Assembly: GCA_965178085.1 (NCBI GenBank)
Contig: CBCXTS010000021.1
Location: forward strand, 322,048 to 386,047
Source: Alphaproteobacteria bacterium
Lineage (GTDB): Bacteria; Pseudomonadota; Alphaproteobacteria; CBCXTS01
Reading direction: 5' to 3'
DNA length: 64,000 nucleotides
Part shown: piece by piece, positions 47,288 through 61,395 of the stretch
Position numbering within the stretch: position 1 is the stretch's first letter
Layout of the letters: every line of letters begins with the position of its first letter
Program-made: the position numbers and the translations under genes
The notes under the pieces: model-generated
What the model was told of the DNA's origin: nothing
The model's input: only the letters and a program-made list of their open reading frames with translations
Databases searched by the model: none

Positions 47288-47290
47288 ACC

Positions 47291-47842
47291 TCAGTTTCCT
47301 TTCATTGATAATTCAATTTTCTTTAGCTGTGTTCCAACGGATGCATCAATCATTTTGCTTGCAAAACGTATAATGATACCACCCAATATTTCTGGATTTA
47401 CCTTATAGGCAATATCCAACTTATCACCTAAAACACTCGTCAGTGAATCTGCTGTTTGCTTTTTTGTTTTGTCATCAAACAGAAAAGCGCTAGTGATTTC
47501 TGCACGTATGATGCCACGAGAATCTGCAATCTTATCCTCAAATCGCTCAATAATAGCACGCACATTTGTTAATCTTCTATTAACACAAAGATATTTTATA
47601 AAATGAACTGTTAATTCATCACAATTAAGCTTTTCTAGCAATAATCCCATAACATCTTCTACTAGCTTACGATTGACGATTGGATTGCTAAGTAATCTGC
47701 GCAAATCTTGTGAATCGTCTAATACCTGCAACAAAGCAGCAAAGTCTCTTGAAATGATGTCTTGCTGAGCGTTGTCTTTACAAAGCTCAAATAACGCATT
47801 TGCGTATCGCCTTGCAATGATACTTTCTTTTGAACTTGCCAA
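47291..47842 (-). CDS. atpH: F1 ATP synthase delta (OSCP) subunit
   Basis: 183 aa in the position of delta at the head of atpHAGDC, 3 nt before atpA. Confidence 0.85.
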   Translation of the reverse strand: MASSKESIIARRYANALFELCKDNAQQDIISRDFAALLQVLDDSQDLRRLLSNPIVNRKLVEDVMGLLLEKLNCDELTVHFIKYLCVNRRLTNVRAIIERFEDKIADSRGIIRAEITSAFLFDDKTKKQTADSLTSVLGDKLDIAYKVNPEILGGIIIRFASKMIDASVGTQLKKIELSMKGN

Positions 47843-48295
47843 ATTAAAACCCTACCAAAAGTATGAACAAAATAGAACAATATTCTATTTCATTTTTAAA
47901 AACAATTTTTAAAAACAAAAGCAAACTTTATGTGTTATACTACCTTAATCAACGCTTAATCAATACAAAGCATCACCAACATAATATCGTACCTTTGAAA
48001 CCCTGCCAGCTATGATCATTAGATCGTATGTGTGTCGTTTAGCATAGCCAACATCACATCGCAATAACGAGCTGCATTTTTATAGTAGAATATTGCATAT
48101 TTTTGTTTTTTTATGCACAAAGCATTAAATTGCACAAAACATAACCATATTATACCACAACAATTATCAGCTTTTTATAATCTGCTAAACATTCTTTTAT
48201 TATTTACCAAATAGCAGCATTATTTGCTAACTGCTTGAATAAAAATGGTTAAGCTAAATTTAATTCAACAAAGCAGCCCAATGATATTGCTGTAC

Positions 48296-49819
48296 TTATC
48301 TAGTGCTACCAGACATAATATCATCACAATCATTTGTTGCCACGATCGTTGCTTTAATAGCACGTTTCCATGCTGAGTACTTTTGCAGTCTAATTGCTTC
48401 TGGCATATTAGGAATAAAGCTTGCTTCAATGGATCGATTGTTCATAAACTCTTCTTGGCTAGGGTACACTCCTGCATGCATCCCTGCAACCCACGCAACC
48501 CCTAGCGCAGTTGCATCAAGCATCGCAGGGCGATCTACAATCAAGTTTGTAATGTCTGATAAAAACTGCATTGTATAACCAGACAAGCACATGCCACCAT
48601 CAACACGCAATCTGCCATCAGCACTTGAGCTCCAATCCATTTGCATTGCTTCAAGAAGGTCTCGGGTTTGAAAGCCTATGGATTCAAGAGCTGCTCGGGC
48701 AAACTCCTCTCTTCTTGATCCACGTGTTATACCAAATATTGCTCCACGGCATTCTGGTTTCCAATAAGGAGATCCCAATCCGGTAAACGCTGGTACAAAA
48801 ACAAGCTCTTGCTTATCATCGCTAGACAAAGCCAAATCTTGTGCCTGTGATGCGATGTTAATAATTTTTAGTCCATCGCGTAACCATTGTACAGATGCAC
48901 CTGCAACAAAAATTGATCCTTCTAATGCATACGTTGTTTTTCCATCAAATTGATATGCAATAGTTGTAAGAAGGCGATGTCGCGACTTTACTGCTTGACT
49001 GCCTGTATTAAGCAATACAAAGCAACCAGTGCCATAAGTAGATTTCATCATTCCAGGTTGAAAGCAAGCATGACCAATCGTTGCAGCATGTTGATCTCCT
49101 AGCACTGCAAAGATAGGAATCTGTGAGCCAAGTATATCTGAAGATGTCACTCCAAAATCATCAGCACAATTATTTACCTTTGGCAACATTTGCTCTGGAA
49201 TAGCTAATAATGCGCAAAGTTGTGATGACCATTCCCCTTGATGAATATCATAAAGCATCGTGCGGGCAGCATTTGTTGCATCCGTACAATGTACTTTGCC
49301 TTTTGTAAATTTCCAAATTAGATAACTATCAACCGTGCCAAACAGCAGGTCTCCTTGTTGAGCTTTTTGCATTGCGCCATCAATATGGGTTAATAACCAG
49401 TGAAGTTTTGTCGCGCAAAAATAAGGATCAATCAGCAAGCCTGTTACATCTGTTATAAGTTTTTCATGTCCTTGTGCTTTAAGCGATTCACAGTAATCTG
49501 CGGTGCGCCTATCTTGCCACACAATCGCATTGCTAATGGGTAATCCTGTATTTTTATCCCAAACCAATGTTGTTTCGCGTTGGTTGGCAATGCCAATTGC
49601 AGTTATTTGTGATGCATCAATTTTAGCCTTTGCTATTGCTTCGCGACAAGTTGCAACTACTGTTGACCAAATGTCAGCTGGATCGTGTTCAACCCATCCT
49701 GAAGCAGGAAAATATTGCTTGAACTCTTTATGTGAAGAAACAATTGGGGTAATATTTTTATCAAAAATAATCGCTCGGCTAGAAGTTGTACCTTGATCAA
49801 TTGCAAGCACGTAAGTCAC
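48296..49819 (-). CDS. glpK: Glycerol kinase
   Basis: N-terminal FGGY motif (AIDQGTTSSRAIIFD). 507 aa. Confidence 0.95.
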   Translation of the reverse strand: MTYVLAIDQGTTSSRAIIFDKNITPIVSSHKEFKQYFPASGWVEHDPADIWSTVVATCREAIAKAKIDASQITAIGIANQRETTLVWDKNTGLPISNAIVWQDRRTADYCESLKAQGHEKLITDVTGLLIDPYFCATKLHWLLTHIDGAMQKAQQGDLLFGTVDSYLIWKFTKGKVHCTDATNAARTMLYDIHQGEWSSQLCALLAIPEQMLPKVNNCADDFGVTSSDILGSQIPIFAVLGDQHAATIGHACFQPGMMKSTYGTGCFVLLNTGSQAVKSRHRLLTTIAYQFDGKTTYALEGSIFVAGASVQWLRDGLKIINIASQAQDLALSSDDKQELVFVPAFTGLGSPYWKPECRGAIFGITRGSRREEFARAALESIGFQTRDLLEAMQMDWSSSADGRLRVDGGMCLSGYTMQFLSDITNLIVDRPAMLDATALGVAWVAGMHAGVYPSQEEFMNNRSIEASFIPNMPEAIRLQKYSAWKRAIKATIVATNDCDDIMSGSTR

Positions 49820-51369
49820 TGCCTTATCTCCTTGATATAAGAGCTTATTTGCTCGATTGCATCCTCATCAAGATACAAACCTAATTTTGTGCGCCTCCAA
49901 ATAATATCTTCAACCGTTTGGGCAAATTCAAATTTTATTAAATAATTAATCTCATGAGTTGTTAAGTTTGGAAAAAAAAATTGACCCATATCTTCTTTCC
50001 TTGTTAAATCACCAAGCAAACTCCATGCATCAGTTCCATAACTTTTAAATAATCTTTTAGCCCACATATCATCTAGAAATGTATAATCGCAAAGTAATTG
50101 TTTAACCCATTTTTCTTCTGTACCAACAATAAAATTGCCACCTGGCAATGGCTTATCTGCAGTCCATTTATTGCCCATTGTAAAAAAAGGTAACAACATC
50201 TCAAGAGCATCTTCAGCAAGCTTGCGATGTGTTGTGATTTTGCCCCCAAATATGTTTAAAAGCGGAGCGCCTTTTTGTGTATTCAGCTCAATAATATAAT
50301 CACGTGAAGCTGCTGTTGGAGATTTCAATCCATCATCATAAAGCGGGCGCACACCAGAATAACTTGAAATCACATCAGATGGTTGAATAGTACGCTTAAA
50401 ATATTGGTTCACACAAGCACATAAATAGCTAACCTCTTCTTGTGAACATGTTGGAGTAGCATGGACATTATTATGCTCTACATCTGTCGTTCCTATTAAC
50501 GTAAAGTCATTTTCATATGGAATAGCAAAAATAATGCGGCTATCTTTTCCTTGAAAAAAATAACATTTACTATGCTCATATATTTTTTTTACTATAATAT
50601 GGCTACCTTTAATCAAACGTATTTTCTTTTGCATATCTACGTCTATTACATTACAAATAACATCTTCTACCCATGGGCCAGCTGCATTAATAAGCGCGCG
50701 CGCATACAGCACTTCTTGATCGGTTGTAATTTCCCATATGCCATTTGTACATATTGCTTTTATAACATTATTGCGCGTTGTAATATTCCCACCTAAACGC
50801 GCTGCGTCACACGCATTGAGTACAACAAGACGTGAGTCATCTACCCAACAATCTGAATATTCATATGCCTTTAAAAATTGATCTTGTAACGGTGCACCTT
50901 CCACGGTATTTTTTAATGCTATTGTTTTTGTTTTTGGTAGTATATTTCTATTGCCTATATGATCATATAAAAATAACCCAAGCCAAATAAGCCAAGCTGG
51001 GCGAGATCTACCTTGCCAGGGTAACAACATTGAAATAAGCTTTGATACTGGTGTTTGCGCTTCAAATTGCATATCCTTATAATAAGGCAAAATAAAGCGC
51101 ATAGGCCACGAAATATGTGGCATGTTTTTTAAGAGAATTTCTTGCTCTTTTAAAGAATTACGTACAAGCCTAAACTCAAAATACTCAAGATAACGCAACC
51201 CACCATGAAATAGCTTTGTTGAGTTAGAAGATGTTGCCGAAGCAAGATCGTTTTTTTCAGCAAGATAAACTTGTAAACCTCGCCCTGCTGCATCGCGCGC
51301 TATGCTAACACCGTTAATACCGCCACCAACGATAAAAAGATCATATATTTTTGAACTCGATTGAGACAT
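49816..51369 (-). CDS. glpD: Glycerol-3-phosphate dehydrogenase (FAD-dependent)
   Basis: FAD motif (DLFIVGGGINGVSIARDAAGRGL). 517 aa. Overlaps glpK by 4 nt. Confidence 0.9.
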   Translation of the reverse strand: MSQSSSKIYDLFIVGGGINGVSIARDAAGRGLQVYLAEKNDLASATSSNSTKLFHGGLRYLEYFEFRLVRNSLKEQEILLKNMPHISWPMRFILPYYKDMQFEAQTPVSKLISMLLPWQGRSRPAWLIWLGLFLYDHIGNRNILPKTKTIALKNTVEGAPLQDQFLKAYEYSDCWVDDSRLVVLNACDAARLGGNITTRNNVIKAICTNGIWEITTDQEVLYARALINAAGPWVEDVICNVIDVDMQKKIRLIKGSHIIVKKIYEHSKCYFFQGKDSRIIFAIPYENDFTLIGTTDVEHNNVHATPTCSQEEVSYLCACVNQYFKRTIQPSDVISSYSGVRPLYDDGLKSPTAASRDYIIELNTQKGAPLLNIFGGKITTHRKLAEDALEMLLPFFTMGNKWTADKPLPGGNFIVGTEEKWVKQLLCDYTFLDDMWAKRLFKSYGTDAWSLLGDLTRKEDMGQFFFPNLTTHEINYLIKFEFAQTVEDIIWRRTKLGLYLDEDAIEQISSYIKEIRQ

Positions 51370-51503: not shown

Positions 51504-52604
51504 CTATTGTTTTTGAATTAAAGCATCCCATCTAGCAAAAAACTTTTCTGGACTATAATCAATAACAATCTGCTGAGCTGCTTTTGATAAACTTACTCTT
51601 TGTTGTTCATCATCTAATAATTTTTTTATCAAATTGCTTAGCATCCCTACATCGCCTATATTAAAAACCCTACCATTTACCCCGTCATTTATAATGCTTA
51701 TATTGCCACGACAATTACTTGCTATTGTTGGAATACCTGCTGCCAATGCCTCACATAAAGCATTCGAAAATCCTTCATAGAACGATGGAAAAACAAATAA
51801 ATCTGCTTGCGCCAAATGCTGCGCAACACAATTGCTTTGCCCTGGCAAAAAAACGCGCGCCTCTAATTGAGAACTAGCGATCAATTTTTTGAGTTTTGTC
51901 CGCTCTGGTCCTTCTCCATAAATCGTTAATGTTATGTCAGGATATGATTGGGCAATTCTTGTAAATGACTTAATCAACGTTTGATGATCTTTATACCACA
52001 TCAATCTTCCAACACTAACAATATGCTTTGGAAACTTTGATATTTTTTTTACTGCAAATGAAGACGGATAAACACCATTGGGAATGATTTTAATACGCCT
52101 TTGGCATGCATCAGTAAAATAATCCTGATAATGCTCAGATTGCAAAACAATATAATCTGCTAAAGGATAAAGTTTTAGTCGTAGCCATTGATACAATGTA
52201 GGTAATTTGTGCATATAAGGATCAGTACGCTCTGTAACAATCGTTGTCTTGCGTAACCCAAACGCAGCAATTAACATTGCTATATTGACTGTATCCATAA
52301 AGGATATGATGACATCAGGGTTTTGAAACTTTAATTCCTTTCTTAAAAGGATAAGACGCTTTAAAATACTCAAAATCTGCATATAAAATCGTGTAGATTG
52401 AACAAGACAGTTCAATTGTACTAATTTAATATCAGCTGTAAGGTCATAAATAGGTAAGTCGCTAGGACCTGCAAATGTTATAATAGTGATCTCATGCTTT
52501 TTGCTAGCATAGTAGTTAGCGAGTTTTGCTAAAACCGTTTCTGCACCACCAATGAAAGAAAGGTGTGGAATGATCAATATAATACGCATACACAATACTA
52601 ACAC
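51504..52604 (-). CDS. Family 4 (GT-B, group 1) glycosyltransferase
   Basis: The C-terminal EX7E-type region (FVFPSFYEGFSNALCEALAAGIPTIASN) marks a retaining GT4. It lies immediately downstream of the candidate system. Confidence 0.8.
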   Translation of the reverse strand: MLVLCMRIILIIPHLSFIGGAETVLAKLANYYASKKHEITIITFAGPSDLPIYDLTADIKLVQLNCLVQSTRFYMQILSILKRLILLRKELKFQNPDVIISFMDTVNIAMLIAAFGLRKTTIVTERTDPYMHKLPTLYQWLRLKLYPLADYIVLQSEHYQDYFTDACQRRIKIIPNGVYPSSFAVKKISKFPKHIVSVGRLMWYKDHQTLIKSFTRIAQSYPDITLTIYGEGPERTKLKKLIASSQLEARVFLPGQSNCVAQHLAQADLFVFPSFYEGFSNALCEALAAGIPTIASNCRGNISIINDGVNGRVFNIGDVGMLSNLIKKLLDDEQQRVSLSKAAQQIVIDYSPEKFFARWDALIQKQ

Positions 52605-52695: not shown

Positions 52696-53700
52696 TTATG
52701 GCGAAAGGCCAATAAATGTTCCACTATTTTTATTTGTAATCTCGCGCATTAAAATAGAATAACGTTCAGAACCACCAAATCCTATACCATGTACTTTAGC
52801 TTTTGGTTTGCCTGTAATGACATCACGATTTAACATGTTAAGCGTTTGAACAACTTGGTCATAAGACACCCTATCATTAAAATCATCTCCAAATATATAA
52901 ATTGATAAACTTACACCAGGCTTTGCATAAGTTTTCAGTGCAGTTACAAGTCCCTCGACAGGTGAACTGTTAGAATCAGGCGTCCATCTTGACAAAAAAT
53001 TAAGTGCATTTTTACGCCGCGCTTTCGAATCTTTTATCCACTTACCCTTAGTGTTACTTACCAAATAGCGACCATTATCATTCATGATTTGAAAACCTTT
53101 TACAATTGGATGCGCAGTTAAAATATTATCAAGAAGCCGCAAAAGTGTAGGTTTAAATTTATCCATACTGCCTGAGGTGTCTACAATAAAAATAATGTAC
53201 TCGCTATCAACAGGTATCCCTCCAATTTCTTTAATTGGCTTATCAGTTGGTTTGTTGGCTTTTAAAATACCAGCTTTTTGAACAGCATTAGAATCGGCCA
53301 TACTAACCGATGAAAGCTTTTGTTGTTGGCGTATAATATCTTCATTTGCTCGATCAAGTGTATCTAGTTGTTGGTTGAGTTCTTCTAATGTTTGTTCTAA
53401 ATTTGGTAAAGATTGCTGAGTATTAGCGTGAGTTTGCTGTTGGCTATTTAATTTACTCTTAGCTTTAGAAATTTTATGGCTTAATTGGTTAACATGTTTT
53501 TCCAATGCAATAACTTCTGATAGCAATTCTGTTATCACCGCTACATCAGTACTTGCAACGACCTCAGTTGAATCAGATTGAATTGGTTGTGAATTGCCCT
53601 TCGAGATTAAAACCAATAACACCACGGCACCAAATCCACACGATATAATATCTAGAAAAGATAGACTAAAAATTTCAAGAACAGTGCGTTTTTTTTTCAT
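52696..53700 (-). CDS. Single-pass membrane protein with an ExbD/TolR-like Asp-containing TM helix, a coiled coil, and a periplasmic vWA domain with MIDAS (paralogue 2)
   Basis: TM helix LEIFSLSFLDIISCGFGAVVLLVLI, compared with TolR PLLDVLLVLLLIF. The TM helix is followed by about 100 aa of heptad-rich sequence. The vWA MIDAS is FIVDTSGSMD (DxSxS), with a Thr in GLVTAL and an Asp in IFGDDFND. Confidence 0.7.
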   Translation of the reverse strand: MKKKRTVLEIFSLSFLDIISCGFGAVVLLVLISKGNSQPIQSDSTEVVASTDVAVITELLSEVIALEKHVNQLSHKISKAKSKLNSQQQTHANTQQSLPNLEQTLEELNQQLDTLDRANEDIIRQQQKLSSVSMADSNAVQKAGILKANKPTDKPIKEIGGIPVDSEYIIFIVDTSGSMDKFKPTLLRLLDNILTAHPIVKGFQIMNDNGRYLVSNTKGKWIKDSKARRKNALNFLSRWTPDSNSSPVEGLVTALKTYAKPGVSLSIYIFGDDFNDRVSYDQVVQTLNMLNRDVITGKPKAKVHGIGFGGSERYSILMREITNKNSGTFIGLSP

Positions 53701-53713
53701 AAAATTTTATCAC

Positions 53714-54832
53714 TCATGGCCAACTTGGCGCAGGTGTCATTAATATACCTTGCGTTTTAAATGCCCATTGCCAATACATATTAGCAGCTTGAGGGTCGCC
53801 CTCCATTGGAAGCAAGACAATGCTCACTGGGACATTAGCACCAAAACTTTCCTTAACAGCGCTTTGTAATAATTGCTGTCGGCATTCCCCTGATATTGTT
53901 TTACGGTTTAATACACACCGTGAAAACACAGTGCTTGAACCTTGCGTTGGCAAACCATCTGTTACAATGTAAAGGTTTGTAATAGCAGGGTTAATCTCTT
54001 TCATTTTTCTTAATCCTGCTGCTAAGTTTGTAGCGTTTTCAGGAATAAAATCATCAATATTTTTTTGCAGTGCAGCAATATCTTGTGCTTGTGTTGTGCG
54101 CATTAACTGCTTTGGTCCCATCATATGCGCTTCTTGATTATAAAATACTACTGAAAACTCTGAACTTTCTGGTATGTTTGACAAAAGCCAATTTATAATG
54201 CGCTTCGTTCTGATCCATTTGGGACCTGCTTTTTTATCACTAGATTTTTTAATTTTACGTGCAATAATATCAATTAACTTTTCATCTGTCATTGAAGCAC
54301 TAGCATCTATTAGCAAACCAATGCGTTTTCCTTCTACAGAAAGACCAAGTAAATACTGCTCTGTTTCTTTGCCTTTTGTTTGAATATTATTTTTTGCTAA
54401 TTTTTGGCTTTCAGATTGCTGTTTTATTTTTTTTTCAATAAATTCTACACGCTGTTTTGTAAGTTCTTCAAGTTTTGTACGCGATTGATCAATATTTTGC
54501 TGTTTTTGAGAAAGCGTTGCTTGTTTTGCTTGAACATCTAAACGCAGTTTTTGAACCTTTTGCTCTGTTACAATATGCTGCTTCAACTGCTTTTCATACT
54601 GAGCATCTAAATCTATCAATGTCTGTTGTAAATTTGTAGCATGTTCAGATAATGATTTGATGTCCAAACGCAATTGTTGCGTTTGAGTTGACACTACTTC
54701 TTCTGGGGCATTAAGGTCTATCTCTGGATCAAACTTTACCAACATTAAAATTAATATAACCGCGCCCAATCCGCATGACATAATATCTAAAAAAGCTAAA
54801 TTAAAACTCTCAATAATTTTTCTTGAGCGCAT
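53714..54832 (-). CDS. Single-pass membrane protein with an ExbD/TolR-like Asp-containing TM helix, a coiled coil, and a periplasmic vWA domain with MIDAS (paralogue 1)
   Basis: TM helix IESFNLAFLDIMSCGLGAVILILMLV, about 65% identical to its paralogue's TM helix. A coiled coil of about 120 aa follows. The vWA MIDAS is LLIDASASMTD, with NATNLAAGL and YIVTDGLPTQ. Confidence 0.7.
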   Translation of the reverse strand: MRSRKIIESFNLAFLDIMSCGLGAVILILMLVKFDPEIDLNAPEEVVSTQTQQLRLDIKSLSEHATNLQQTLIDLDAQYEKQLKQHIVTEQKVQKLRLDVQAKQATLSQKQQNIDQSRTKLEELTKQRVEFIEKKIKQQSESQKLAKNNIQTKGKETEQYLLGLSVEGKRIGLLIDASASMTDEKLIDIIARKIKKSSDKKAGPKWIRTKRIINWLLSNIPESSEFSVVFYNQEAHMMGPKQLMRTTQAQDIAALQKNIDDFIPENATNLAAGLRKMKEINPAITNLYIVTDGLPTQGSSTVFSRCVLNRKTISGECRQQLLQSAVKESFGANVPVSIVLLPMEGDPQAANMYWQWAFKTQGILMTPAPSWP

Positions 54833-54841
54833 TAGATTTTA

Positions 54842-55585
54842 TTAAACCCTAATTTTTGTCAAAAGATTCCGTTCGCAATATTCTTGAATGGCTACTAGAG
54901 TTTTTTCTTGTTCTTTTTGTAATTGATACAATAAAAACATTAAAATTAAGCTGATAAACAACGCAACGAGCGTTGAATTAAATGCCAATCCTAAGCTTTG
55001 TGTCATCCCGGATATATTTCCAGATAATGCTTGATCTGCCTGAGCAAGTGCTTGGCCTATGCCGCGTACTGTACCTATAAACCCAATAGATGGAACTGCC
55101 CAAATAATATAACGTATCATTGCATTATCTGAATCTTGCTCAAGCGATACATCTTCAATTGTAGAGCGCACGCACTCGCTGGTGTTATGGACATTTTTTG
55201 TGCTTTTAAAATGCCTAAGACTTGATATAACAACCCGCATCAGTGGAGTTTCACGCTCACGATGCTCAAGCGATTCAAGCCTATTCAACAATTGATCAAT
55301 GTTTTGAGTATCTTCTATAACATTGACATAATATTGATGTTTATTGCTCGATATTTGTAAAATTTTTGATAAAATAAGATAACTTCCCCATAAAAGCCCA
55401 ATCAAACATATCTCTTGTTCTAGATCTTTTAAAATAACAAATATATTTCGTGGCGCCGAAAGGCCTTCAGCATATGCGGCTTGTATCGCACTGTCTGCAT
55501 TAGGATGGATAAACCCTAAATAAACCACATGTACTAAAACGATTGAAAGTGCTAAAGCAATAAGGCTTTTCACCATTGCTAACAT
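54842..55585 (-). CDS. MotA/TolQ/ExbB-family proton channel protein
   Basis: 247 aa. The conserved C-terminal helices AVPSIGFIGTVRGIGQALAQ...GMTQSLGLAFNSTLVALFISLILMFLLY are diagnostic of the family. Confidence 0.85.
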   Translation of the reverse strand: MLAMVKSLIALALSIVLVHVVYLGFIHPNADSAIQAAYAEGLSAPRNIFVILKDLEQEICLIGLLWGSYLILSKILQISSNKHQYYVNVIEDTQNIDQLLNRLESLEHRERETPLMRVVISSLRHFKSTKNVHNTSECVRSTIEDVSLEQDSDNAMIRYIIWAVPSIGFIGTVRGIGQALAQADQALSGNISGMTQSLGLAFNSTLVALFISLILMFLLYQLQKEQEKTLVAIQEYCERNLLTKIRV

Positions 55586-55599
55586 GTTAACTGTCTCCT

Positions 55600-55743
55600 T
55601 TAAATATCAATGGGAAATGAAACTGGCGCGTCAATACTAATCACTTCTTGTCCATATGCAAGAACAGCGGTTATCAATAAAATTAAAACAAACAAAAACA
55701 AATAAAACTTCTGTTTTTTATTATTTTTCAATAATTGCATCAT
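55600..55743 (-). CDS. Unannotated 47-aa single-TM peptide between the FGE-fold gene and the MotA-like gene
   Basis: Manual minus-strand translation gives MMQLLKNNKKQKFYLFLFVLILLITAVLAYGQEVISIDAPVSFPIDI*. It is below the ORF-track length cut-off. It lies 14 nt upstream of the MotA-like start and is on the same strand as the operon. Confidence 0.35.
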   Translation of the reverse strand: MMQLLKNNKKQKFYLFLFVLILLITAVLAYGQEVISIDAPVSFPIDI

Positions 55744-55796: not shown

Positions 55797-57842
55797 TCAT
55801 TGAACATTCATCACTGATCTTGCAATACGAAAGCCAATCTTATCACTTGGATTGCGACCAGCTTTACGATAACTGGCTCGAAGTTCTCTCAGTGTAGCGC
55901 TTGCCCAACTTGAACCTTTCACAACATGTTTAAGAGAATTGCTATGATTTGGTTGAGGGCCCATCGGATCAGTATATACTTTTTGATTAGGTTTAGCAAA
56001 ACTATACAAATCATGTGTCCACTCACTAACATTACCAATCAAGTCATAAATTCCAAGAATATTTTGCTTGAAACTTCCTACTGGGGCAGTTTTGATATAC
56101 CCGTCTTGATAGTTTGGGATCATACGCTTTGTTGTACCTTGAGCTGAAGCATCTGCTAAATTGCCTGCCTGCTTTGGAACGGTACTATCATCGCCCCAAA
56201 TGAATTTTGTTGTAGTGTCTTTTCCTGCTTTACGCGCTAACCATTCCCATTCTGCTTCCGTTGGCAATCTGTATCCATTGGCCTTAGCATTATAGCCTTC
56301 ATATTTCCCATCAGCATTAAATCGATAGAATTGTTGCAAACCTTCTTTTTGACTAAGCCAATTGCAAAATTCTGCTGCTTGATTCCAAGTAATATTAGTA
56401 ACTGGCAATTGATCTAGTGATGCGTGTTCTATATTAAAAGCTTGATATTGTTTATTAGTAATTTCATATTTGCTAATTGCTAATTGCTTTGTAAACTGTA
56501 TCTGGCGCAAATGTTCATTCCTAATGCGTCCTTTTTCATTAGCAGGGCTTCCAATTGTTATTGCATCAGGCATAACATTAAGCATTACAATGCCAAGTTT
56601 ACTGGCAAAATGTTGATCCGCTTGATCTTGTAATATTTCAGACAAGCTTTTTAGTTCTATATTGAGCGCAAGCGCTTTGTTGTAACTTAACTCTATTTCT
56701 TGCTTAAATACCTGATAACCTGGAGCTTTTGCTTGTATTGTATATGTTGCCGCTGGGATGTCTATTGATATTGGAGTTTTAGCAAATAGTTGACCATCGA
56801 TATAAATATTTGCTCTTGGTTTACTTGTAATCGCCAAAGAACCTATTGCTTGTTTAAGGTCAAATTCAATAACTTTTAATTCACCAGGTAAAAGTTTAAT
56901 ATTGTTTGTTGCCTTTATATAACCATCTTTTTCATAGTTAATTTCAAGGGCTTTATTCGATACAAAAGACTGAGCTTCAGAACCATCTACAAGCTTGTTA
57001 TTAACCAGCAACTGCCCTCCTTCAGGGTATAATATAAAATCTATATATGCCTTTTTAGGATTTAAAATATAATGGCGTTCAATCACTGATTGGTCCACAG
57101 TGATATCAATTAAGTCATATCTCGTATCATATCCTTTAGATTCTATTGAGAGTTGATGCTTTCCTGGTTTCATTTTCAAATTCTGTGGCGTTGTTCCAAC
57201 TACATTTCCTTCAATATATAAAGTCTGCCCTGTTGGTTTTGAAGTCACTTTTAATGACCCTTCAACGGCTTTTAGCTGAAAAAACAAACGATGCACTCCA
57301 CCTCGTTTGGTGACTATCTTTTCACTGATTGGTTGATAGTGCGGATGGCTAACTGATATGGTTTGCTCTCCAACATCTATTGCTTTTGAAAAGCTTACTC
57401 CTTGATGCAGTTGCTCTCCATTAACAAACCATTGCAAACTTGAATCATCTATATTAGTGCTGGCAGTTACTATAGGAGCAATGGGCTCCATATTAATGCG
57501 AAGAGTCTCATCTAAATGTTCATCTAACCTTATTGTTTTTACTACAAAGCCATCTGCTGCAATTTGTATTGTTGTAGGAATAGCACCAATAAAATAAAAA
57601 CCCTTTTCATAAGATATTGCAAAGCCTTCAATTGTATCTATTTCGATATCAATGCTTGCATCATTAGGCTGGATATCTAAATTGACTGAACGCAATAAAA
57701 ACAACCAAACACTAAAAACCAATACAGCAAAAAGCAATACTAAACCATACAACAATGTTGATAGGCCAAACCTCACTTTAGCTTGTTTGAACTGCTTAGT
57801 TATAGGATCAGATGGATGAGAGTGATCAAACTGGCTCATCAC
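55797..57842 (-). CDS. Membrane-anchored protein with tandem PEGA-like beta domains and a C-terminal FGE/SUMF1-fold domain that lacks the catalytic cysteines
   Basis: N-terminal TM helix (FGLSTLLYGLVLLFAVLVFSVWLFLL). At least four PEGA-like repeats (for example GSLKVTSKPTGQTLYIEGNVVGTTPQNLKMKPGKHQLSIESKGYDTRY). The FGE domain is NITWNQAAEFCNWL...YRLPTEAEWEWLA...GNVSEWTHD...VKGSSWASATLRELRASYR...IGFRIA. No Cys occurs where FGE carries its catalytic Cys pair. Confidence 0.8.
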   Translation of the reverse strand: MMSQFDHSHPSDPITKQFKQAKVRFGLSTLLYGLVLLFAVLVFSVWLFLLRSVNLDIQPNDASIDIEIDTIEGFAISYEKGFYFIGAIPTTIQIAADGFVVKTIRLDEHLDETLRINMEPIAPIVTASTNIDDSSLQWFVNGEQLHQGVSFSKAIDVGEQTISVSHPHYQPISEKIVTKRGGVHRLFFQLKAVEGSLKVTSKPTGQTLYIEGNVVGTTPQNLKMKPGKHQLSIESKGYDTRYDLIDITVDQSVIERHYILNPKKAYIDFILYPEGGQLLVNNKLVDGSEAQSFVSNKALEINYEKDGYIKATNNIKLLPGELKVIEFDLKQAIGSLAITSKPRANIYIDGQLFAKTPISIDIPAATYTIQAKAPGYQVFKQEIELSYNKALALNIELKSLSEILQDQADQHFASKLGIVMLNVMPDAITIGSPANEKGRIRNEHLRQIQFTKQLAISKYEITNKQYQAFNIEHASLDQLPVTNITWNQAAEFCNWLSQKEGLQQFYRFNADGKYEGYNAKANGYRLPTEAEWEWLARKAGKDTTTKFIWGDDSTVPKQAGNLADASAQGTTKRMIPNYQDGYIKTAPVGSFKQNILGIYDLIGNVSEWTHDLYSFAKPNQKVYTDPMGPQPNHSNSLKHVVKGSSWASATLRELRASYRKAGRNPSDKIGFRIARSVMNVQ

Positions 57843-59418
57843 AAATTACCGTAACTGACAAATGATCCATCTCAATGTCAATTTTTATTGTTTTGCGTAC
57901 CGTCTTATATTTTTTTTTGCTTCCTTCTAAAATATATGTCCCGGGTTTTAACGTGATTTGCTTTTCATCTATGACACCAACATGGCCTACACCTACAACT
58001 TTGACATAAGTCTCATTATCAGAAATAACTGTAATATTAACATTTGCATCATAAGATTTAATAAGAGATTGGAGTCTTTCTAGCCGCTTCGATAATGAAA
58101 GACTTAGCACATTCAAATGCAAAAGTTGATCGTGCGTTTTTTGCGCTTTGCTTCTGATCTTAAAGTCTGTCAAGCGCTCGTGATCAATATCATATCGTCC
58201 TATTTGAGAAAAAGCTGATAGCAGTGTTGTAATTATTTCATCAAATTTTATAAAACGCTCATCGCTACCATAACGTGTGAGAGCATCTTGTGATACTTCT
58301 TTAGCATTAATCCAATGATCATTTTCTATGAATTGTTCAATCTTTTTTAGCTTTTCATCAATGTCTCTATCTTTTAAAAACGTATTAATTTTCTGGTGCA
58401 GATTTTCTGTTTCAATCCGATTAGCCCCAATCATTCGTGCCTTTTCGTATAATTTTACTGCTTCAGCAACATCTTGTTTTTGCAACGCATTTGTGCCTTG
58501 TTTAATGAAACGTTGATATTTTTCTTCTATTATTTGCTGATGTAGTTTTTGTATTTTTATTTGGATACCATCTATCTCAGGATCAAGATTTGATAATGCT
58601 TTCAATAAACTATGTTCTAATTTTATGTCATCATTGTCGCGGGCTTTTACTATTTGATGCTGTAGATCTTGAATTTTTGGTAAATTTTTAATCCGCTGCT
58701 GCAATACTAAAGCTTCTTGCGATTGAGGGTTGGTAGTAAGTGCATAATCAATTGCTTCTACGGCTTGCTTATAATTTCTTGACTGGAAATTTTGCTGCGC
58801 TGATAAAAAAGCATCATCATATGTTTTATTCCATAAAAAGCGTATATTTTTGATTTTCTGTAAAGCTTGAGTAAGCAATTCTTTGCCAGAGGTGTAATCA
58901 CCTTGCGTGAACATTGCTAGTGCTTGATCATACATTTGCAAAACTTCGTTATATTGGACGTTTTGATATTGAACTGCCCATTGGAGCAAACTTGCATGTT
59001 GTGACAAACTATTCCAATGTTCTTCAAATTTTGCCAATTCCTTTTTAAATTCTGCACTATCTAACTTAGATTGCAACACAGATTGACTGACTTTATTGTC
59101 ATTTGCATCAATATTTGTTTGAATGTCGTCAGGGTATGTATGTGACTTAACAGATGATAAGCCTACTTGGTTTGCCTCAGCCGATGACCTAGATTTTATA
59201 CCATCACCAGTAGAGCCTTCATTATCAGACTTTTCTAATTGGGATGGTGCTCTATTATCTGTTGTATCAGCTTGATTTTCAAAACTAAAATCATCAGCAA
59301 ATCGAATAAAAAAAAGTAACACGAAGGCAAAAACTGTAAAAATAACGCCTACAATCAGCATATGTTTTCTTCTGGCGTTACGCGCTTGTTTGAAATCAGT
59401 AAATTTATTGTCCATCAA
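57826..59418 (-). CDS. Single-pass membrane protein with TPR-like/helical repeats and a C-terminal PEGA-like beta domain
   Basis: TM helix MLIVGVIFTVFAFVLLFFIRF. About 350 aa of helical repeats follow. The C-terminal QITLKPGTYILEGSKKKYKTVRKTIKIDIEMD matches a PEGA-type fold. The 3' end overlaps the FGE-fold gene by 17 nt. Confidence 0.6.
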   Translation of the reverse strand: MMDNKFTDFKQARNARRKHMLIVGVIFTVFAFVLLFFIRFADDFSFENQADTTDNRAPSQLEKSDNEGSTGDGIKSRSSAEANQVGLSSVKSHTYPDDIQTNIDANDNKVSQSVLQSKLDSAEFKKELAKFEEHWNSLSQHASLLQWAVQYQNVQYNEVLQMYDQALAMFTQGDYTSGKELLTQALQKIKNIRFLWNKTYDDAFLSAQQNFQSRNYKQAVEAIDYALTTNPQSQEALVLQQRIKNLPKIQDLQHQIVKARDNDDIKLEHSLLKALSNLDPEIDGIQIKIQKLHQQIIEEKYQRFIKQGTNALQKQDVAEAVKLYEKARMIGANRIETENLHQKINTFLKDRDIDEKLKKIEQFIENDHWINAKEVSQDALTRYGSDERFIKFDEIITTLLSAFSQIGRYDIDHERLTDFKIRSKAQKTHDQLLHLNVLSLSLSKRLERLQSLIKSYDANVNITVISDNETYVKVVGVGHVGVIDEKQITLKPGTYILEGSKKKYKTVRKTIKIDIEMDHLSVTVICDEPV

Positions 59419-59474: not shown

Positions 59475-60740
59475 TTATAAGACAACATCAGGCGTTGTTT
59501 CAGCATCAAATATTCGTTTAAGGTGCGTTCTCCATTGCATATATTGTTCTTTGGCACTGCCTTGCAACTCAACAACTGTATCTTCTAACGTAACAACTTG
59601 CTTGCCAAGGCTAAGTTGTAGAGAATCTCCTAATTCATGAAGATTATCACGATGATATTCGCTTTGTGCACTCAAATTTTGTCCTTCATTCCATGTATAA
59701 ACAGCTGCTCCACCCAACCCTATTGCAAACATTGATGTGTCAACATTGGTATTCGCACCAGCTATAATACTAGCAACAGCGCCCGCAACAGACAAAATGC
59801 TTAATCCTTTTTGTATCATGGCGTCGCGCTCTGCCTCTTGTCTTGCTATATGTTCTAAAAGGGCTTCTTTTTGCCATAAATGATAGGACTCATTCATTGC
59901 TAAAGTGAAGTCTTTATAATTGCTTTGCAGCTTATCAATAAAGGCATTATCATGCTCTCTTAGTCTCTCAATGCGTGCATACATCGGATCATTGTCTGCT
60001 GGCAGACCTAGCAATTCAATTTTTTCATTTTTATCTTTGCCAAGATATTGCCCAAAAGTTTCTTGCGAAAACGCACTGGCAAATTTAATATTTGTAACAT
60101 GCTTGATATTTGTAAGCTCTTGTTTGGAATGCTTCTTTAAAAGCCTAACAATATGTTGAGCGGCTTCATCAAAAGCAGGTTGATATGAATCTTTATGGTC
60201 ATTCCTTGGATCTTGATGAAAGCTTTCTTCTATTTCATGTTCAAATATTTTTTTATCCCAAACATTTCCAAGACTATCTCTGATATCAAGCTCAAACTTG
60301 ATCTCTTTAGCGTTTGATTGCAGTATTTTTCCAAAAACATACAACTCTCCTGCTACTTGATCATTTGGCACTACACGTACTGCGCCGAATGCGCTGGTGT
60401 TTTCTAGAGATTCTTTTAACTTAAGCGGAAATCTATTTGCTTCAGCGCGTCGCAACTCAGGCCAAATATTTTCTTCTTTATAGCTTTGACTATCTTCAGG
60501 CAAACCAGGATCAAACGTTATCAACATGACATCAAGAAAAACTGATGAAGGATCTTCTTGTATCTCAGGCTTTTTTTTATCAAACAAAAGTCCTAAGTTG
60601 CTTCCTAGACTACCCGACGAACTATCCTTAGAGTTGCTCGATAATGATGATGTTTGACACCCTGATAAAAGCATCAATAGTAATATTGCTACAACAGTAG
60701 TTGCAACGCTAAATTTATTTTTATTGCATAGATGTATCAT
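59475..60740 (-). CDS. Lipoprotein of unknown function
   Basis: Lipobox LLLMLLSGCQTS. 421 aa of mixed alpha/beta sequence with a hydrophobic segment near residue 330 (LSILSVAGAVASIIAGA). Confidence 0.6.
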   Translation of the reverse strand: MIHLCNKNKFSVATTVVAILLLMLLSGCQTSSLSSNSKDSSSGSLGSNLGLLFDKKKPEIQEDPSSVFLDVMLITFDPGLPEDSQSYKEENIWPELRRAEANRFPLKLKESLENTSAFGAVRVVPNDQVAGELYVFGKILQSNAKEIKFELDIRDSLGNVWDKKIFEHEIEESFHQDPRNDHKDSYQPAFDEAAQHIVRLLKKHSKQELTNIKHVTNIKFASAFSQETFGQYLGKDKNEKIELLGLPADNDPMYARIERLREHDNAFIDKLQSNYKDFTLAMNESYHLWQKEALLEHIARQEAERDAMIQKGLSILSVAGAVASIIAGANTNVDTSMFAIGLGGAAVYTWNEGQNLSAQSEYHRDNLHELGDSLQLSLGKQVVTLEDTVVELQGSAKEQYMQWRTHLKRIFDAETTPDVVL

Positions 60741-60762: not shown

Positions 60763-61395
60763 TTAATATTTTCTATATTCTTCCCATAATTTTTTTTGCA
60801 AATCAGGATCTGGTTCATTAAGGGCTTTATTATAAATGATTTTCTTAATAACTTCATCATTATTTGGAGCAACGATATCTTGAGGCACTATCTTTGATGC
60901 CGATGCTTTCCCTTGCCTATCTGTAGAGCCTTGATTCTGCTGGCTTATTTGTTCATCATCCAAACCCGCTTGTATTGCTTCATCACCAGATAAAGTTGGT
61001 GCATCTTGTACAGACAAATCATTCTGTGAAAAATCCGATTGCTGCGTTCCTGAAACATCATCTACTGCAACTGTTGAAACATTTTGACCTGTTTGTGATT
61101 CAAAAGCATCGCTTTGTAAGGCACTATCTCCATTTACATCCCCAGACAAATTAGCAGCTGCTTGCGTATTATCTTGTTGACAATCATCTCTTGCATCAAT
61201 GGATGCAAATAGAGCATCTTCTAATAGTTGTATCCGTTCTTGCGTTGTCAAAGCATCATCATCGATATTACTTAATATATTAACCTCGCAGTTACTGGCA
61301 TATGCACTGTCTTGCATTAGCACTACTTGACTAAACAAATAGATGGCAATAGCAAAGATTAACATTATCAATAAATGAAGCAAATTAATTACCAT
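60763..61395 (-). CDS. Membrane-anchored acidic D/Q/S-rich protein of unknown function
   Basis: An N-terminal signal peptide or anchor (LLHLLIMLIFAIAIYLFSQVVLM) followed by a strongly acidic low-complexity region. It is the first gene of the tight string. Confidence 0.45.
   Translation of the reverse strand: MVINLLHLLIMLIFAIAIYLFSQVVLMQDSAYASNCEVNILSNIDDDALTTQERIQLLEDALFASIDARDDCQQDNTQAAANLSGDVNGDSALQSDAFESQTGQNVSTVAVDDVSGTQQSDFSQNDLSVQDAPTLSGDEAIQAGLDDEQISQQNQGSTDRQGKASASKIVPQDIVAPNNDEVIKKIIYNKALNEPDPDLQKKLWEEYRKY

Follow-up and report, generated by a model that had tools for sequence, protein, structure and literature searches.

Introduction

Flagella, TonB-dependent uptake, Tol-Pal envelope maintenance, gliding and the T9SS, and Zorya defence all run on ion motors of 5:2 stoichiometry, and each raises the question of how the turning of a motor in the inner membrane is converted into useful work elsewhere. 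The B subunits ExbD, TolR and MotB are homodimers that carry an essential Asp near their cytoplasmic end (D25, D23 and D32, respectively). In the gliding motor of Myxococcus, the TolR-like AglQ and AglS are short and have neither a coiled coil nor a vWA domain, and in Zorya it is the A subunit, ZorA, that has a long coiled coil, on its cytoplasmic side.

The closest described proteins were reported in a computational study (Mol Biol Evol, 2025; msaf138, Figure 4c,d; PMC12204202) as TolQ-linked "trans-pore helix"-vWA (TPH-vWA) proteins occurring in heterologous pairs, and AlphaFold 3 models in that work place both Asp residues inside the Thr ring of a TolQ-like pentamer. TPH-vWA proteins were defined there by a tolQ-like neighbour in the absence of tolR or exbD, by a transmembrane (TM) Asp without an SHLS motif and by a C-terminal vWA domain; they are mostly heterologous pairs from Proteobacteria whose partner has the Thr ring, and the seeds came from Idiomarina loihiensis. 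The same paper describes another vWA family, characterized by an SHLS motif with a TM His, a Pro-rich or disordered linker and tolR-like genes alongside.

In this work, we analyzed a stretch of 64,000 nucleotides of alphaproteobacterial DNA (hereafter, the window) that contains an eight-gene operon, g1 to g8. Its last two genes encode VwaA and VwaB, which are probably the two inner, axle-forming B-type subunits of a 5:2 motor of the ExbB/TolQ/MotA type, with the product of g6 as the predicted outer pentamer; all the computational tests that we ran agree with a B-type role for both proteins. The features listed for TPH-vWA proteins were found here as well, namely a MotA-type neighbour, no tolR, exbD or motB, a TM Asp, a vWA fold, a pair of genes and a Thr ring, and by definition VwaA and VwaB do not differ from that family, the comparison having been made with its published description. 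The motor-subunit reading is thus already in print, reached computationally and by the same reasoning (PMC12204202). An initial annotation of the window had known of no characterised example, which holds as far as experiments are concerned and no longer holds for the idea, published in 2025. Absent from the text of that paper are the eight-gene operon with its PEGA/FGE, TPR, lipoprotein and small-peptide genes (the words "sulfatase", "PEGA" and "GldK" do not occur in it), the near-equal stalk spacing of the paralogues, the Ser that replaces the MIDAS Thr in VwaB and the vWA-vWA-MotA gene order of one distant relative.

Results

VwaA and VwaB are paralogues with heptad-rich stalks and predicted vWA heads

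The two ORFs lie exactly where the initial annotation had placed them (Table 1), and every string quoted in it was recovered, that is, both TM segments, IDASASM in VwaA and VDTSGSM in VwaB. The claimed paralogy was borne out by hhalign, which aligned the proteins across 269 columns covering TM helix, stalk and vWA core with 99.6% probability (E 4e-24), and by BLASTP (E 4e-14). The identity of the TM helices had been overestimated at about 65%, since the quoted strings share 14 of 25 residues (56%).

Table 1. Position of the operon genes and of the predicted functional elements of g6, VwaA and VwaB in the window.
Feature	Coordinates	Strand	Description or basis
g1	60763..61395	minus	210 aa; hydrophobic N-terminus, two conserved Cys
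g2	59475..60740	minus	421-aa lipoprotein; lipobox LSGC
g3	57826..59418	minus	530 aa; N-terminal TM anchor, TPR-like repeats, conserved C-terminal beta region
g4	55797..57842	minus	681 aa; N-terminal TM anchor, PEGA domains, C-terminal FGE-sulfatase-fold domain
g5	55600..55743	minus	Small ORF, 47 aa from ATG; signal-peptide-like or TM N-terminus
g6	54842..55585	minus	247 aa; MotA/ExbB/TolQ-family channel protein (Pfam PF01618)
g6 T172 codon	55070-55072	minus	Predicted pore Thr
g6 T205 codon	54971-54973	minus	Predicted pore Thr
VwaA (g7)	53714..54832	minus	372 aa; ORF
VwaA putative trans-pore TM helix, SFNLAFLDIMSCGLGAVILILMLVK	54734..54808	minus	Residues 9-33; checked by translation
VwaA Asp16 codon	54785-54787	minus	Within TM helix
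VwaA predicted MIDAS motif DASAS (D176-x-S-x-S180)	54293..54307	minus	Homologue alignment and translation
VwaB (g8)	52696..53700	minus	334 aa; ORF
VwaB putative trans-pore TM helix, IFSLSFLDIISCGFGAVVLLVLISK	53599..53673	minus	Translation and N-terminus comparison
VwaB Asp17 codon	53650-53652	minus	Within TM helix
VwaB predicted MIDAS motif DTSGS (D174-x-S-x-S178)	53167..53181	minus	Homologue alignments and translation

VwaA comprises a basic N-terminus, the TM helix, a heptad-rich stalk (residues 48 to 150, approximately) and a vWA domain (about 165-372). The AF2 model of VwaB (mean pLDDT 78) has its TM helix at residues 14-34 and one long helix at 53-136, and residues 160-334 form a domain of vWA fold (pLDDT about 90). 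When the VwaB model was compared with the PDB by Foldseek, the best 50 matches were overwhelmingly vWA domains, including 4fx5 (5.7e-8), ITIH1, CMG2/ANTXR2 and BatB, whereas the Pfam vWA match was sub-threshold (E 0.02); the predicted vWA fold of VwaB is therefore based on the model and its structural matches. That of VwaA follows from the hhalign alignment to VwaB across the vWA core, from a Pfam VWA_2 match below the cut-off (23.9 bits against 27, E 7e-5) and from PF13519, which is precomputed on most VwaA homologues. The presence of a vWA domain in both proteins, as initially annotated, is thus upheld by different evidence for each.

In an alignment of 33 VwaA homologues, the canonical MIDAS is complete and invariant (D176-x-S178-x-S180, T268 and D292). 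Likewise, D174-x-S176-x-S178 and D272 of VwaB are invariant in alignments of 32 and 85 homologues, in which an invariant SNSSPxEG motif occupies the position of the MIDAS Thr; the equivalent of this Thr is S245 by the register of an "xxGL" helix cap, and hhalign puts E249 there. Hence, a MIDAS made of DxSxS, Thr and Asp, which had been assigned to both proteins, is found as such in VwaA, and in VwaB with the exception of the Thr; a lack of conservation of these residues in orthologues had been named there as a possible refutation, and the residues proved invariant in the alignments of both proteins. One distant member of the family (P0469) has a degenerate MIDAS (NSSAT). The two MIDAS are predicted metal sites, with Ser replacing Thr in VwaB. 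Among the 33 VwaA homologues, the Cys pair C306/C317 is invariant too, as is the WP at the C-terminus (W371, P372), and the Cys pair is compatible with a periplasmic location of the VwaA head.

The stalk measures about 103 residues in VwaA and 84 residues, as one helix, in VwaB. Hydrophobic occupancy of heptad a/d positions was 0.55 in VwaA against 0.39 in shuffled sequences (p 0.003), and 0.71 against 0.46 in VwaB (p <0.0005). The heptad-rich linker of about 100-120 aa that had been described for both proteins was thus confirmed regarding heptads, and regarding length for VwaA but not for VwaB. The spacing from the TM Asp to the MIDAS is nearly equal in the two paralogue families (about 137 versus 138) and is longer in both proteins of the window (162 in VwaA, 159 in VwaB). 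Since the extra residues of the window VwaB lie mainly in low-confidence segments on either side of the helix, while about 15 of those of VwaA lie inside the coil, and since this concerns one lineage, the argument for matched stalks is suggestive only.

This spacing bears on how the two proteins assemble. Like ExbD, TolR and MotB, VwaA and VwaB could each form homodimers, giving two populations of motors (five g6 with two VwaA, and five g6 with two VwaB) that act on different periplasmic ligands. Differences between the heads fit such a division, as in VwaA the MIDAS loop is followed by an insertion and the head has the Cys pair and the WP tail, and VwaB has the Ser at the Thr position. We nevertheless regard two homodimeric motors as unlikely, given that vwaA and vwaB occurred together in all of the 83 related loci that, with 10-kb flanks, served as the sample for co-occurrence and gene order, their coding ranges usually abutting or overlapping; that the TM-to-MIDAS spacing is near identical and has lengthened in both proteins in the window lineage; that the TM helices differ consistently between paralogues (GLGA versus GFGA, AFLD versus SFLD), as expected of complementary packing; and that pairs of this kind were noted as heterologous in PMC12204202.

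An invariant Asp in the TM helix and a conserved, probable channel partner

The Asp of the TM helix (D16 in VwaA, D17 in VwaB) was present, as FLD, in 59 of 59 distinct VwaA and 72 of 72 distinct VwaB N-termini, so it is invariant in a set of about 130 distinct sequences whose positions differ to around one half overall, and it is kept in more distant members (E about 1e-61). In both proteins it lies only four residues into the helix, which is N-in and follows a basic N-terminus, and thus near the cytoplasmic end, where a stator-type Asp had been initially proposed. N11, A13, F14, L15 and D16 are near-invariant in the alignment of 33 VwaA homologues. Neither a TM His nor an SHLS motif was found in any of the 59 and 72 N-termini.

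The motif N-[LV]-x-x-[FL]-[LI]-D-[IV]-[ML] of VwaA and VwaB resembles the corresponding segments of Escherichia coli ExbD (INVTPFIDVM) and TolR (INIVPLLDVL). A profile of VwaA and VwaB N-termini retrieved no match at E<=10 from PDB sequences with HMMER, a Pfam scan of 23 N-termini gave neither an ExbD nor a MotB family at E<=10, and full-length VwaA and VwaB had no Pfam match to ExbD, MotB_plug or OmpA at E<=0.1, in line with the annotated lack of an ExbD periplasmic or OmpA-like domain. The suggested alignment with the ExbD, TolR and MotB helices therefore yields a local likeness of motif and no statistically detectable match, and the link depends on motif, position and context. VwaA and VwaB are predicted to act like B subunits, yet they lie outside the ExbD/TolR (PF02472) and MotB families.

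That context is provided by g6, directly upstream of vwaA, its stop codon 9 nt ahead of the vwaA start. The g6 protein matches Pfam MotA_ExbB above the cut-off (E 1.1e-12), with weak matches to the NCBIfam models for TolQ, MotA and ExbB. T172 and T205 are Thr in 79 of 79 family members, in an alignment that includes E. coli ExbB and TolQ; they align with T148 and T181 of ExbB, equivalent to T145 and T178 of TolQ. A MotA-like gene was detected in 81 of the 83 loci, and the remaining two loci start at or beside the vwaA gene. In one distant relative the trio is ordered vWA-vWA-MotA, with all motifs intact. A conventional B subunit was searched for by tblastn: with the threshold relaxed to E<=10, E. 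coli ExbD matched nothing in the window and TolR gave a single match of 24 residues outside the operon (E 0.33), and neither had a match at E<=1e-3 in the 83 loci with their flanks. These loci were drawn from Alpha-, Gamma- and Zetaproteobacteria, Nitrosomonadaceae, Desulfobacterota and Binatia. Similarly, Pfam ExbD was not found on any operon protein.

In a mirror-tree analysis, all six large genes of the operon co-varied (r 0.77-0.95), and partial correlations with the others controlled were 0.07 for MotA-VwaA and 0.25 for MotA-VwaB. This indicates that the operon is co-inherited as a whole, without a signal specific to MotA and the Vwa proteins; of the anticipated co-evolution with the adjacent MotA-like protein, only the operon-wide component was thus observed.

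Taken without their context, the TM helices might be ordinary signal anchors with a structural or fortuitous Asp, as in BatA/BatB, and the MotA-like protein might use an ExbD or TolR encoded elsewhere or act alone. The missing statistical match to known B-subunit helices and the unspecific mirror-tree would agree with this, the ExbD/TolR search within this genome was that of the 64-kb window, so that a trans-acting gene may lie elsewhere, and the VwaB head has BatB (3ibs) as one of its fold matches; BatA and BatB, moreover, also combine an N-terminal TM anchor with a vWA domain and are paralogues encoded side by side. We consider passive anchors improbable, however, because a charged TM residue that is invariant in two families, in those 130 or so sequences and in several phyla, is unlike a passive anchor, the entire helix is among the most conserved stretches of both proteins, and the genes strictly adjoin a MotA_ExbB gene whose Thr ring is intact, no gene for a B subunit having been detected in the 83 loci and their 10-kb flanks. 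In addition, BatA/BatB differ from VwaA/VwaB in that the latter combine the invariant helix Asp with a coiled-coil stalk and have a MotA-like partner, and the MoxR ATPase and DUF58 genes of the Bat operon are absent from the operon described here and from three related loci (L001-L003). It is very improbable that VwaA and VwaB are instead TonB/TolA-like force transducers at the periphery of the pentamer, like the other vWA family of PMC12204202, with which they share a TM helix, a long linker, a globular vWA head and a tolQ-like neighbour, as their helix has Asp and no His, their linker is a heptad helix and no tolR-like gene was found in the window or in the 83 loci with their flanks.

Read as B subunits, VwaA and VwaB can be set against the known motors. 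With ExbB-ExbD and TolQ-TolR they share a MotA_ExbB-type A subunit with both pore Thr and an N-in single-pass B subunit with an Asp, but they lack the periplasmic ExbD/TolR domain and are encoded by two different B genes; moreover, no separate transducer of the TonB/TolA type is present here, stalk and binding head being part of the B subunit itself. The 5:2 logic, the Asp of the B helix and a periplasmic extension for binding or anchoring to a partner recall MotA-MotB and PomA-PomB, from which the locus differs by having neither an OmpA-like peptidoglycan-binding domain nor flagellar genes in the operon. One MotA/TolQ-like A gene with two different B genes is also the arrangement of AglR-AglQ/AglS, an analogy drawn in the initial annotation, although none of the Glt genes was found at this locus.

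A strictly conserved operon of predicted envelope proteins

The order g1-g8 is retained in related loci wherever the contig is long enough, and likewise in L001 and L002; the eight genes thus form a strictly conserved operon. Besides the motor trio, the products are predicted envelope proteins. The g1 protein, which had no match in a Pfam search, has a low-complexity, acidic and Ser-rich middle, and its C-terminal part contains a conserved motif (..PeDIP.adND...aqIR.aA..E.DP...LWnEYRKY), and tblastn matches to it were found in 57 of the 83 loci. The folded core of g2 has a PelC / CsgG / TolB-N / LptE-type fold; outside it there is a long helix, as well as a hydrophobic segment rich in Gly (Gly-zipper), named SlyB in some JGI records. 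Genes g3 and g4 overlap by 17 nt. The C-terminus of the small g5 is near-invariant, with ISLNSPVSFPVDI as the family consensus and ISIDAPVSFPIDI in the window. A strict pattern search recovered g5 from 59 of 73 loci, each time between g4 and g6, and in L001 and L002 the gene calls at this position are ORFs of 41-44 aa.

The g4 protein matches Pfam FGE-sulfatase (2e-41) and PEGA (4.6e-27). Among proteins of solved structure, PorK/GldK come closest to it (E 1e-16), ahead of genuine FGEs (1e-11). As members of the g4 family have 0-1 Cys within the last 260 aa, the FGE-type domain would lack the catalytic Cys pair and is termed non-catalytic. We also considered g4 as a PorK/GldK of the T9SS and rejected this assignment, since the NCBIfam GldK model (TIGR03525) scored 106 bits against a cut-off of 350 and the protein has a TM anchor without a lipobox, so that only the FGE-fold domain is PorK-like. 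GldL, GldM and GldN were not found among the operon proteins with Pfam or NCBIfam.

The operon context points to a layout like that of PorLM-PorKN, which is not discussed in PMC12204202. PorL-PorM (GldL-GldM) with PorK-PorN likewise combine a 5:2 motor, a dimeric B subunit that forms a long periplasm-spanning rod and, in the same cluster, a protein whose FGE fold is predicted to be non-catalytic. The differences are that g6 matches MotA_ExbB and not GldL, that the carrier Asp is on the B helix in place of a Glu on the A subunit, that the rod consists of a coiled coil and vWA domains and not of PorM domains, that g4 is TM-anchored and not a lipoprotein, that no PorN was found and that the hosts belong to other phyla.

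A Zorya-like anti-phage system with the 5:2 motor as envelope sensor, for which one could invoke a weak PADLOC match of g6 to ZorA (E 1.3e-4, confined to the shared channel region) and the IS3-type transposase genes (HTH_Tnp_1, rve) that in L001 and L002 lie downstream, a few kb away from the operon, is extremely doubtful, because PADLOC gave no match to ZorB, ZorC, ZorD or ZorE and only coiled-coil noise for the other six proteins, the operon contains no nuclease, helicase or other effector, the long coiled coil belongs to the B subunit and is periplasmic, unlike that of ZorA, which belongs to the A subunit and is cytoplasmic, all the other products appear to be envelope proteins, and the co-variation of the six large genes fits a vertically co-inherited, housekeeping-type operon.

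Discussion

Proposed mechanism and distribution

If VwaA and VwaB are B-type axle subunits, their helices would sit together as a heterodimer in the pore of the g6 pentamer, and the flow of protons (or Na+) by way of the Asp and Thr residues would turn the pentamer relative to the axle. A parallel coiled-coil stalk could then carry the movement some 12-15 nm into the periplasm, roughly the length that a stalk helix of about 85-100 residues has if fully helical. There, a metal-bridged carboxylate would link the two vWA heads to the partner that they hold. The likeliest partners may be operon products, namely g4, g3, g2, g1 with its acidic tail or g5, which ends in ...FPVDI. Together, these proteins would make up a transducer of force or torque that spans the envelope and is powered by PMF, following a logic like that of Tol-Pal, Ton and PorLM-PorKN.

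More tentatively, VwaA and VwaB may be the rotating axle of an unrecognised eight-gene trans-envelope machine, in which an ExbB-type 5:2 motor would spin or pull the heterodimeric coiled-coil stalk, g4, g3 and g2, the last as an outer-membrane lipoprotein, would make up the outer assembly engaged by the two MIDAS heads, and the invariant C-terminus of g5 as a small secreted peptide (...SFPVDI-COOH) or the acidic tail of g1 would be the metal-bridged MIDAS ligand. As part of the same tentative reading, this machine would be distinct from Ton, Tol-Pal, the flagellar stator, Agl-Glt gliding, the T9SS and Zorya.

The conserved eight-gene context supplies concrete candidates for the outer partners of VwaA and VwaB. 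Because the presumed axle subunit itself bears a rigid-looking stalk and a MIDAS that can be mutated, coupling could be open to dissection by simple point mutants and pull-downs. The family forms 315 clusters at 50% identity (E<=1e-30), with at least 591 matches in species-representative genomes, and its hosts are found among the Alpha-, Gamma- and Zetaproteobacteria, the Nitrosomonadaceae, the Desulfobacterota and the Binatia, including culturable strains of Methylophaga, Sneathiella and Denitrobaculum.

Paralogy and anatomy of VwaA and VwaB

The initial annotation had placed two adjacent genes for TM-helix/stalk/vWA proteins here, VwaA (g7) and VwaB (g8), and both ORFs were recovered with exactly those limits on the minus strand, separated by 13 nucleotides; the quoted TM strings and the motifs IDASASM and VDTSGSM were all found in their translations. 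Paralogy of the two proteins was borne out by BLASTP (E 4e-14) and by a profile alignment of VwaA (33 homologues) with VwaB (32 homologues), which begins at the TM helix and extends across the vWA core (99.6% probability, E 4e-24). The identity between the TM strings, put at about 65%, was counted as 14/25 (56%) and is slightly lower.

Both proteins open with a basic stretch (MRSRK, MKKKR), after which comes a single hydrophobic helix. The AF2 model of VwaB places the TM helix at residues 14-34, with the Asp as helix residue 4. A short linker of low confidence connects the TM helix to the stalk, which in VwaB is a single helix (residues 53-136) with a counterpart at about 48-150 in VwaA. Hydrophobic occupancy of the heptad a/d positions was 0.71 in VwaB compared to 0.46 in shuffled sequence (p<0.0005), and 0.55 compared to 0.39 in VwaA (p 0.003).

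Pfam gave only sub-threshold support for the head domain (VWA_2 with 23.9 bits, cut-off 27, in VwaA; best E of only 0.02 in VwaB), and a search of PDB sequences with the full VwaA profile returned coiled-coil noise and did not find the vWA domain. Because the VwaA head has diverged beyond the reach of sequence searches, the vWA assignment was based on fold prediction. The C-terminal 175 residues of VwaB were modelled with a pLDDT of about 90, and the top 50 Foldseek matches of this head in the PDB were overwhelmingly vWA domains, among them 4fx5 (5.7e-8), ITIH1, CMG2/ANTXR2 and BatB.

Features of the operon, its surroundings and related loci (positions refer to the window unless a locus is named)
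Feature	Position	Strand	Length	Typical size in related loci	Description
g1	60763-61395	-		~210 aa	First operon gene; hydrophobic N-terminus, two conserved Cys
g2		-		~415 aa	Lipoprotein
g3		-		~485 aa	TM anchor and TPR-like repeats
g4	55797-57842	-		~670 aa	TM-anchored, PEGA repeats, C-terminal FGE-sulfatase fold (Pfam 2e-41)
g5	55600-55743	-	47 aa	41-50 aa	Small ORF between g4 (PEGA/FGE) and g6 (MotA-like)
g6	54842-55585	-	247 aa		MotA-like; Pfam MotA_ExbB E 1.1e-12, above cut-off
g7 (VwaA)	53714-54832	-	372 aa		ORF
g8 (VwaB)	52696-53700	-	334 aa		ORF
Flank, one side	51504-52604	-			GT4 glycosyltransferase
Flank, other side	61479-62711	-			Sugar C-methyltransferase-type protein
Flank, other side	62884-63801	-			GT2 glycosyltransferase
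Housekeeping genes	45758-51369	-			Beside the operon; read from translations
Transposase genes	L001:12377-13866				IS3 type (HTH_Tnp_1, rve)
Transposase genes	L002:15822-16987				IS3 type (HTH_Tnp_1, rve)
Distant relative	L084:1-3769				VwaA-like, VwaB-like and MotA-like genes, in this order

Conservation of the TM aspartate and of the MIDAS

Across the 33 VwaA homologues aligned (37-47% identity to the query), the MIDAS residues D176, S178, S180, T268 (in TNL) and D292 (in TDGLPT) were invariant, as were C306, C317 and a C-terminal WP, and the TM helix was 90-100% conserved at N11, A13, F14, L15, D16, C20, G21, L22, G23 and A24. Alignments of 32 and 85 VwaB homologues showed invariant F15, L16 and D17 in the TM helix, D174, T175, S176, S178 and M179 together with G271-D272 in the head, and the invariant motif S243-x-S245-S246-P247-x-E249-G250. 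The proposal that a Thr belongs to the predicted metal site of both proteins therefore holds for VwaA (T268) and fails for VwaB, where the Thr is replaced; its equivalent is S245 when the helix-cap registers are compared (T-x-x-x-x-G-L in VwaA, S-S-P-V-E-G-L in VwaB) and E249 according to hhalign.

The TM Asp was present in 59/59 (VwaA) and 72/72 (VwaB) distinct N-termini from the related loci, and was kept in ten members that are far more remote (E about 1e-61 to 1e-91). P0469, a distant VwaA-like protein of 374 aa, has kept the FLD of the TM helix and carries a degenerate MIDAS with NSSAT in place of DxSxS; the MIDAS is therefore not universal across the wider family.

Candidate axle subunits of a MotA/ExbB/TolQ-type channel

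The stop codon of g6, which encodes the MotA/ExbB/TolQ-type channel protein, lies 9 nucleotides ahead of VwaA. The protein is divergent: NCBIfam models of TolQ, MotA and ExbB matched only weakly, phmmer found no match to it in the PDB, and tblastn of the window with E. coli ExbB or TolQ did not pick it up. T172 and T205 of g6 were Thr in 79/79 family members, and align with T148/T181 of E. coli ExbB and T145/T178 of E. coli TolQ.

The TM helix of VwaA and VwaB has no significant statistical similarity to ExbD, TolR or MotB in PDB and Pfam searches. A 45-column profile of the helix gave zero matches among all PDB sequences at E<=10, so homology to these subunits is not demonstrable by sequence statistics, and 23 N-termini searched against Pfam at E<=10 matched spurious TM families only. 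The likeness to these subunits lies in a short motif (FNLAFLDIM compared to INVTPFIDVM in ExbD), in where the Asp is placed, and in topology and gene context. Canonical partners were not found either: tblastn with E. coli ExbD found nothing in the 64-kb window at E<=10, TolR produced at the same threshold only a 24-residue match outside the operon (E 0.33), and neither query had a match at E<=1e-3 in 83 related loci, flanks of up to 10 kb included. VwaA and VwaB would act like axle subunits of the ExbD/TolR/MotB type but fall outside those families, since the defining periplasmic domains are absent.

In a full-text search, a single paper proved to bear directly on these proteins (Mol Biol Evol 2025;42(6):msaf138; PMC12204202). 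The second vWA family that it describes, the trans-pore helix-vWA (TPH-vWA) class, is TM-tethered, co-occurs "extremely tightly" with tolQ homologues without tolR/exbD, and is "predominantly found in heterologous pairs" in Proteobacteria and Verrucomicrobia (PMC12204202). The published AF3 models place an Asp pair within a Thr ring, and the authors state that the function of TPH-vWA proteins is unknown and deletion phenotypes are unreported (PMC12204202). Point by point, VwaA and VwaB agree with this description in every testable feature. The central idea of the initial annotation is therefore not new, as it is already in print as a prediction (PMC12204202). Its observation of paired TM/stalk/vWA proteins is confirmed, and the computational evidence, as far as it reaches, supports its stator/axle interpretation.

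Co-inheritance and proposed pairing of VwaA and VwaB

Across 63 loci, FLD and DxSxSM were spaced similarly in the two proteins (VwaA, about 137-143 residues; VwaB, about 134-141), and in the window the distance was longer in both (162 and 159, respectively). This fits two stalks that would be of equal reach, in one lineage only and with the extra residues at non-equivalent places. Two homodimeric motors would be the alternative to a VwaA-VwaB heterodimer; the heterodimer is tentatively favoured because of the matched spacing, the strict 1:1 co-occurrence and coding ranges that usually abut or overlap.

In a mirror-tree comparison, the six large genes of the operon all had correlated distance matrices (r 0.77-0.95). 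Once the common signal was removed, partial correlations were 0.07 for g6-g7 and 0.25 for g6-g8. Co-evolution with the MotA-like protein, which the initial annotation set as a check, is thus seen only as co-inheritance; the comparison speaks neither for nor against a signal specific to g6 and VwaA/VwaB.

A conserved eight-gene operon

A scan of species-representative genomes identified at least 591 relatives. The best 80 of these included Gammaproteobacteria (Methylophaga, Endobugula, Granulosicoccus, Amphritea, Glaciecola, Arenicellales, Thiotrichaceae), Alphaproteobacteria (Sneathiella, Rhodospirillales, Denitrobaculum), Zetaproteobacteria (Mariprofundus), Nitrosomonadaceae, Binatia and Desulfobacterota (Desulfocapsaceae, Desulforhopalus, Desulfobacteraceae). 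Culturable carriers include Methylophaga muralis Bur 1, M. sulfidovorans DSM 11578, Sneathiella sp. HT1-7 and Denitrobaculum tricleocarpae R148. When 1.84 billion cluster representatives were searched with a profile, there were 315 matches at E<=1e-30, 926 at E<=1e-10 and 2569 at E<=1e-3, the full-length members being nearly all of 340-375 aa.

Every related locus with sufficient contig carried eight genes in the constant order g1-g8. By tblastn in 83 loci, g7 and g8 were each present in 83, g6 in 81, g4 in 75, g3 in 70, g2 in 68 and g1 in 57, the lower counts following contig ends. In the window, the genes are separated by gaps of 9-56 nucleotides, with one 17-nucleotide overlap, and were therefore read as one operon. 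Promoter-like sites in this AT-rich DNA barely exceeded the shuffle expectation, and a scan of the operon did not find a minus-strand terminator.

Gene neighbourhoods were also inspected for four remote members of the family; three lie on short contigs, and L084 was informative. All motifs are intact in its VwaA-like, VwaB-like and MotA-like proteins, and these genes are followed by one for a lipoprotein that combines a Gly-zipper and a coiled coil with an OmpA-like peptidoglycan-binding domain. The trio is retained in L084 and its outer partners are different.

Other products of the operon

The nearest solved relatives of g4 were PorK/GldK, ring lipoproteins of the type IX secretion system (E about 1e-16); true formylglycine-generating enzymes scored less well (about 1e-11), and its top NCBIfam model was GldK (106 bits, cut-off 350). 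Members of the g4 family have 0-1 Cys within the last 260 residues; the catalytic Cys pair is thus absent, and a true FGE enzyme was rejected. An FGE-fold gene adjoining a 5:2 motor recalls the porKLMN/gldKLMN cluster, here in Proteobacteria.

The lipoprotein g2 has a PelC/CsgG/TolB-N/LptE-type fold, several proteins of which form outer-membrane-associated rings, and contains a Gly-rich hydrophobic segment labelled SlyB in some JGI records. The g5 product, matched by a strict pattern in 59/73 related loci and by no Pfam family, has a signal-peptide-like N-terminus, frequently with an AxA-type site, and an almost invariant C-terminus (mostly ISLNSPVSFPVDI among relatives, ISIDAPVSFPIDI in the window). 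If cleaved, it would leave a periplasmic peptide of 13-20 residues ending in Asp-Ile-COOH. The g1 product, which matched no known family, has a long low-complexity region rich in Ser, Asp and Gln and a conserved acidic/helical C-terminal motif (PeDIP.adND...aqIR.aA..E.DP...LWnEYRKY).

Our best-supported guess is that the machine would be a PMF-driven force transducer of the envelope, working on an outer-membrane-associated assembly encoded by the same operon. The words sulfatase, PEGA and GldK have zero occurrences in the text of PMC12204202, and combinations of PEGA, FGE, GldK, MotA and vWA turned up no pertinent work in the literature; the conserved eight-gene context seems not to have been treated before. 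The family is widespread and mechanistically attractive, although the idea itself is no longer new.

Genomic surroundings of the operon

An anti-phage reading was rejected after a PADLOC search. A function tied to the glycosyltransferases and the methyltransferase encoded on either side was likewise rejected, as the flanks are not conserved and vary from genome to genome. These genes of the window are missing from three related loci (L001-L003), and are therefore probably part of a polysaccharide locus of their own. The housekeeping genes beside the operon encode proteins resembling the F1 ATP synthase alpha subunit, glycerol kinase and glycerol-3-phosphate dehydrogenase, together with a short protein at the position of the delta subunit. 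GC content is about 36% throughout the window. In two unrelated genomes (L001 and L002), the IS3-type transposase genes are located directly downstream or a few kb downstream of the operon.
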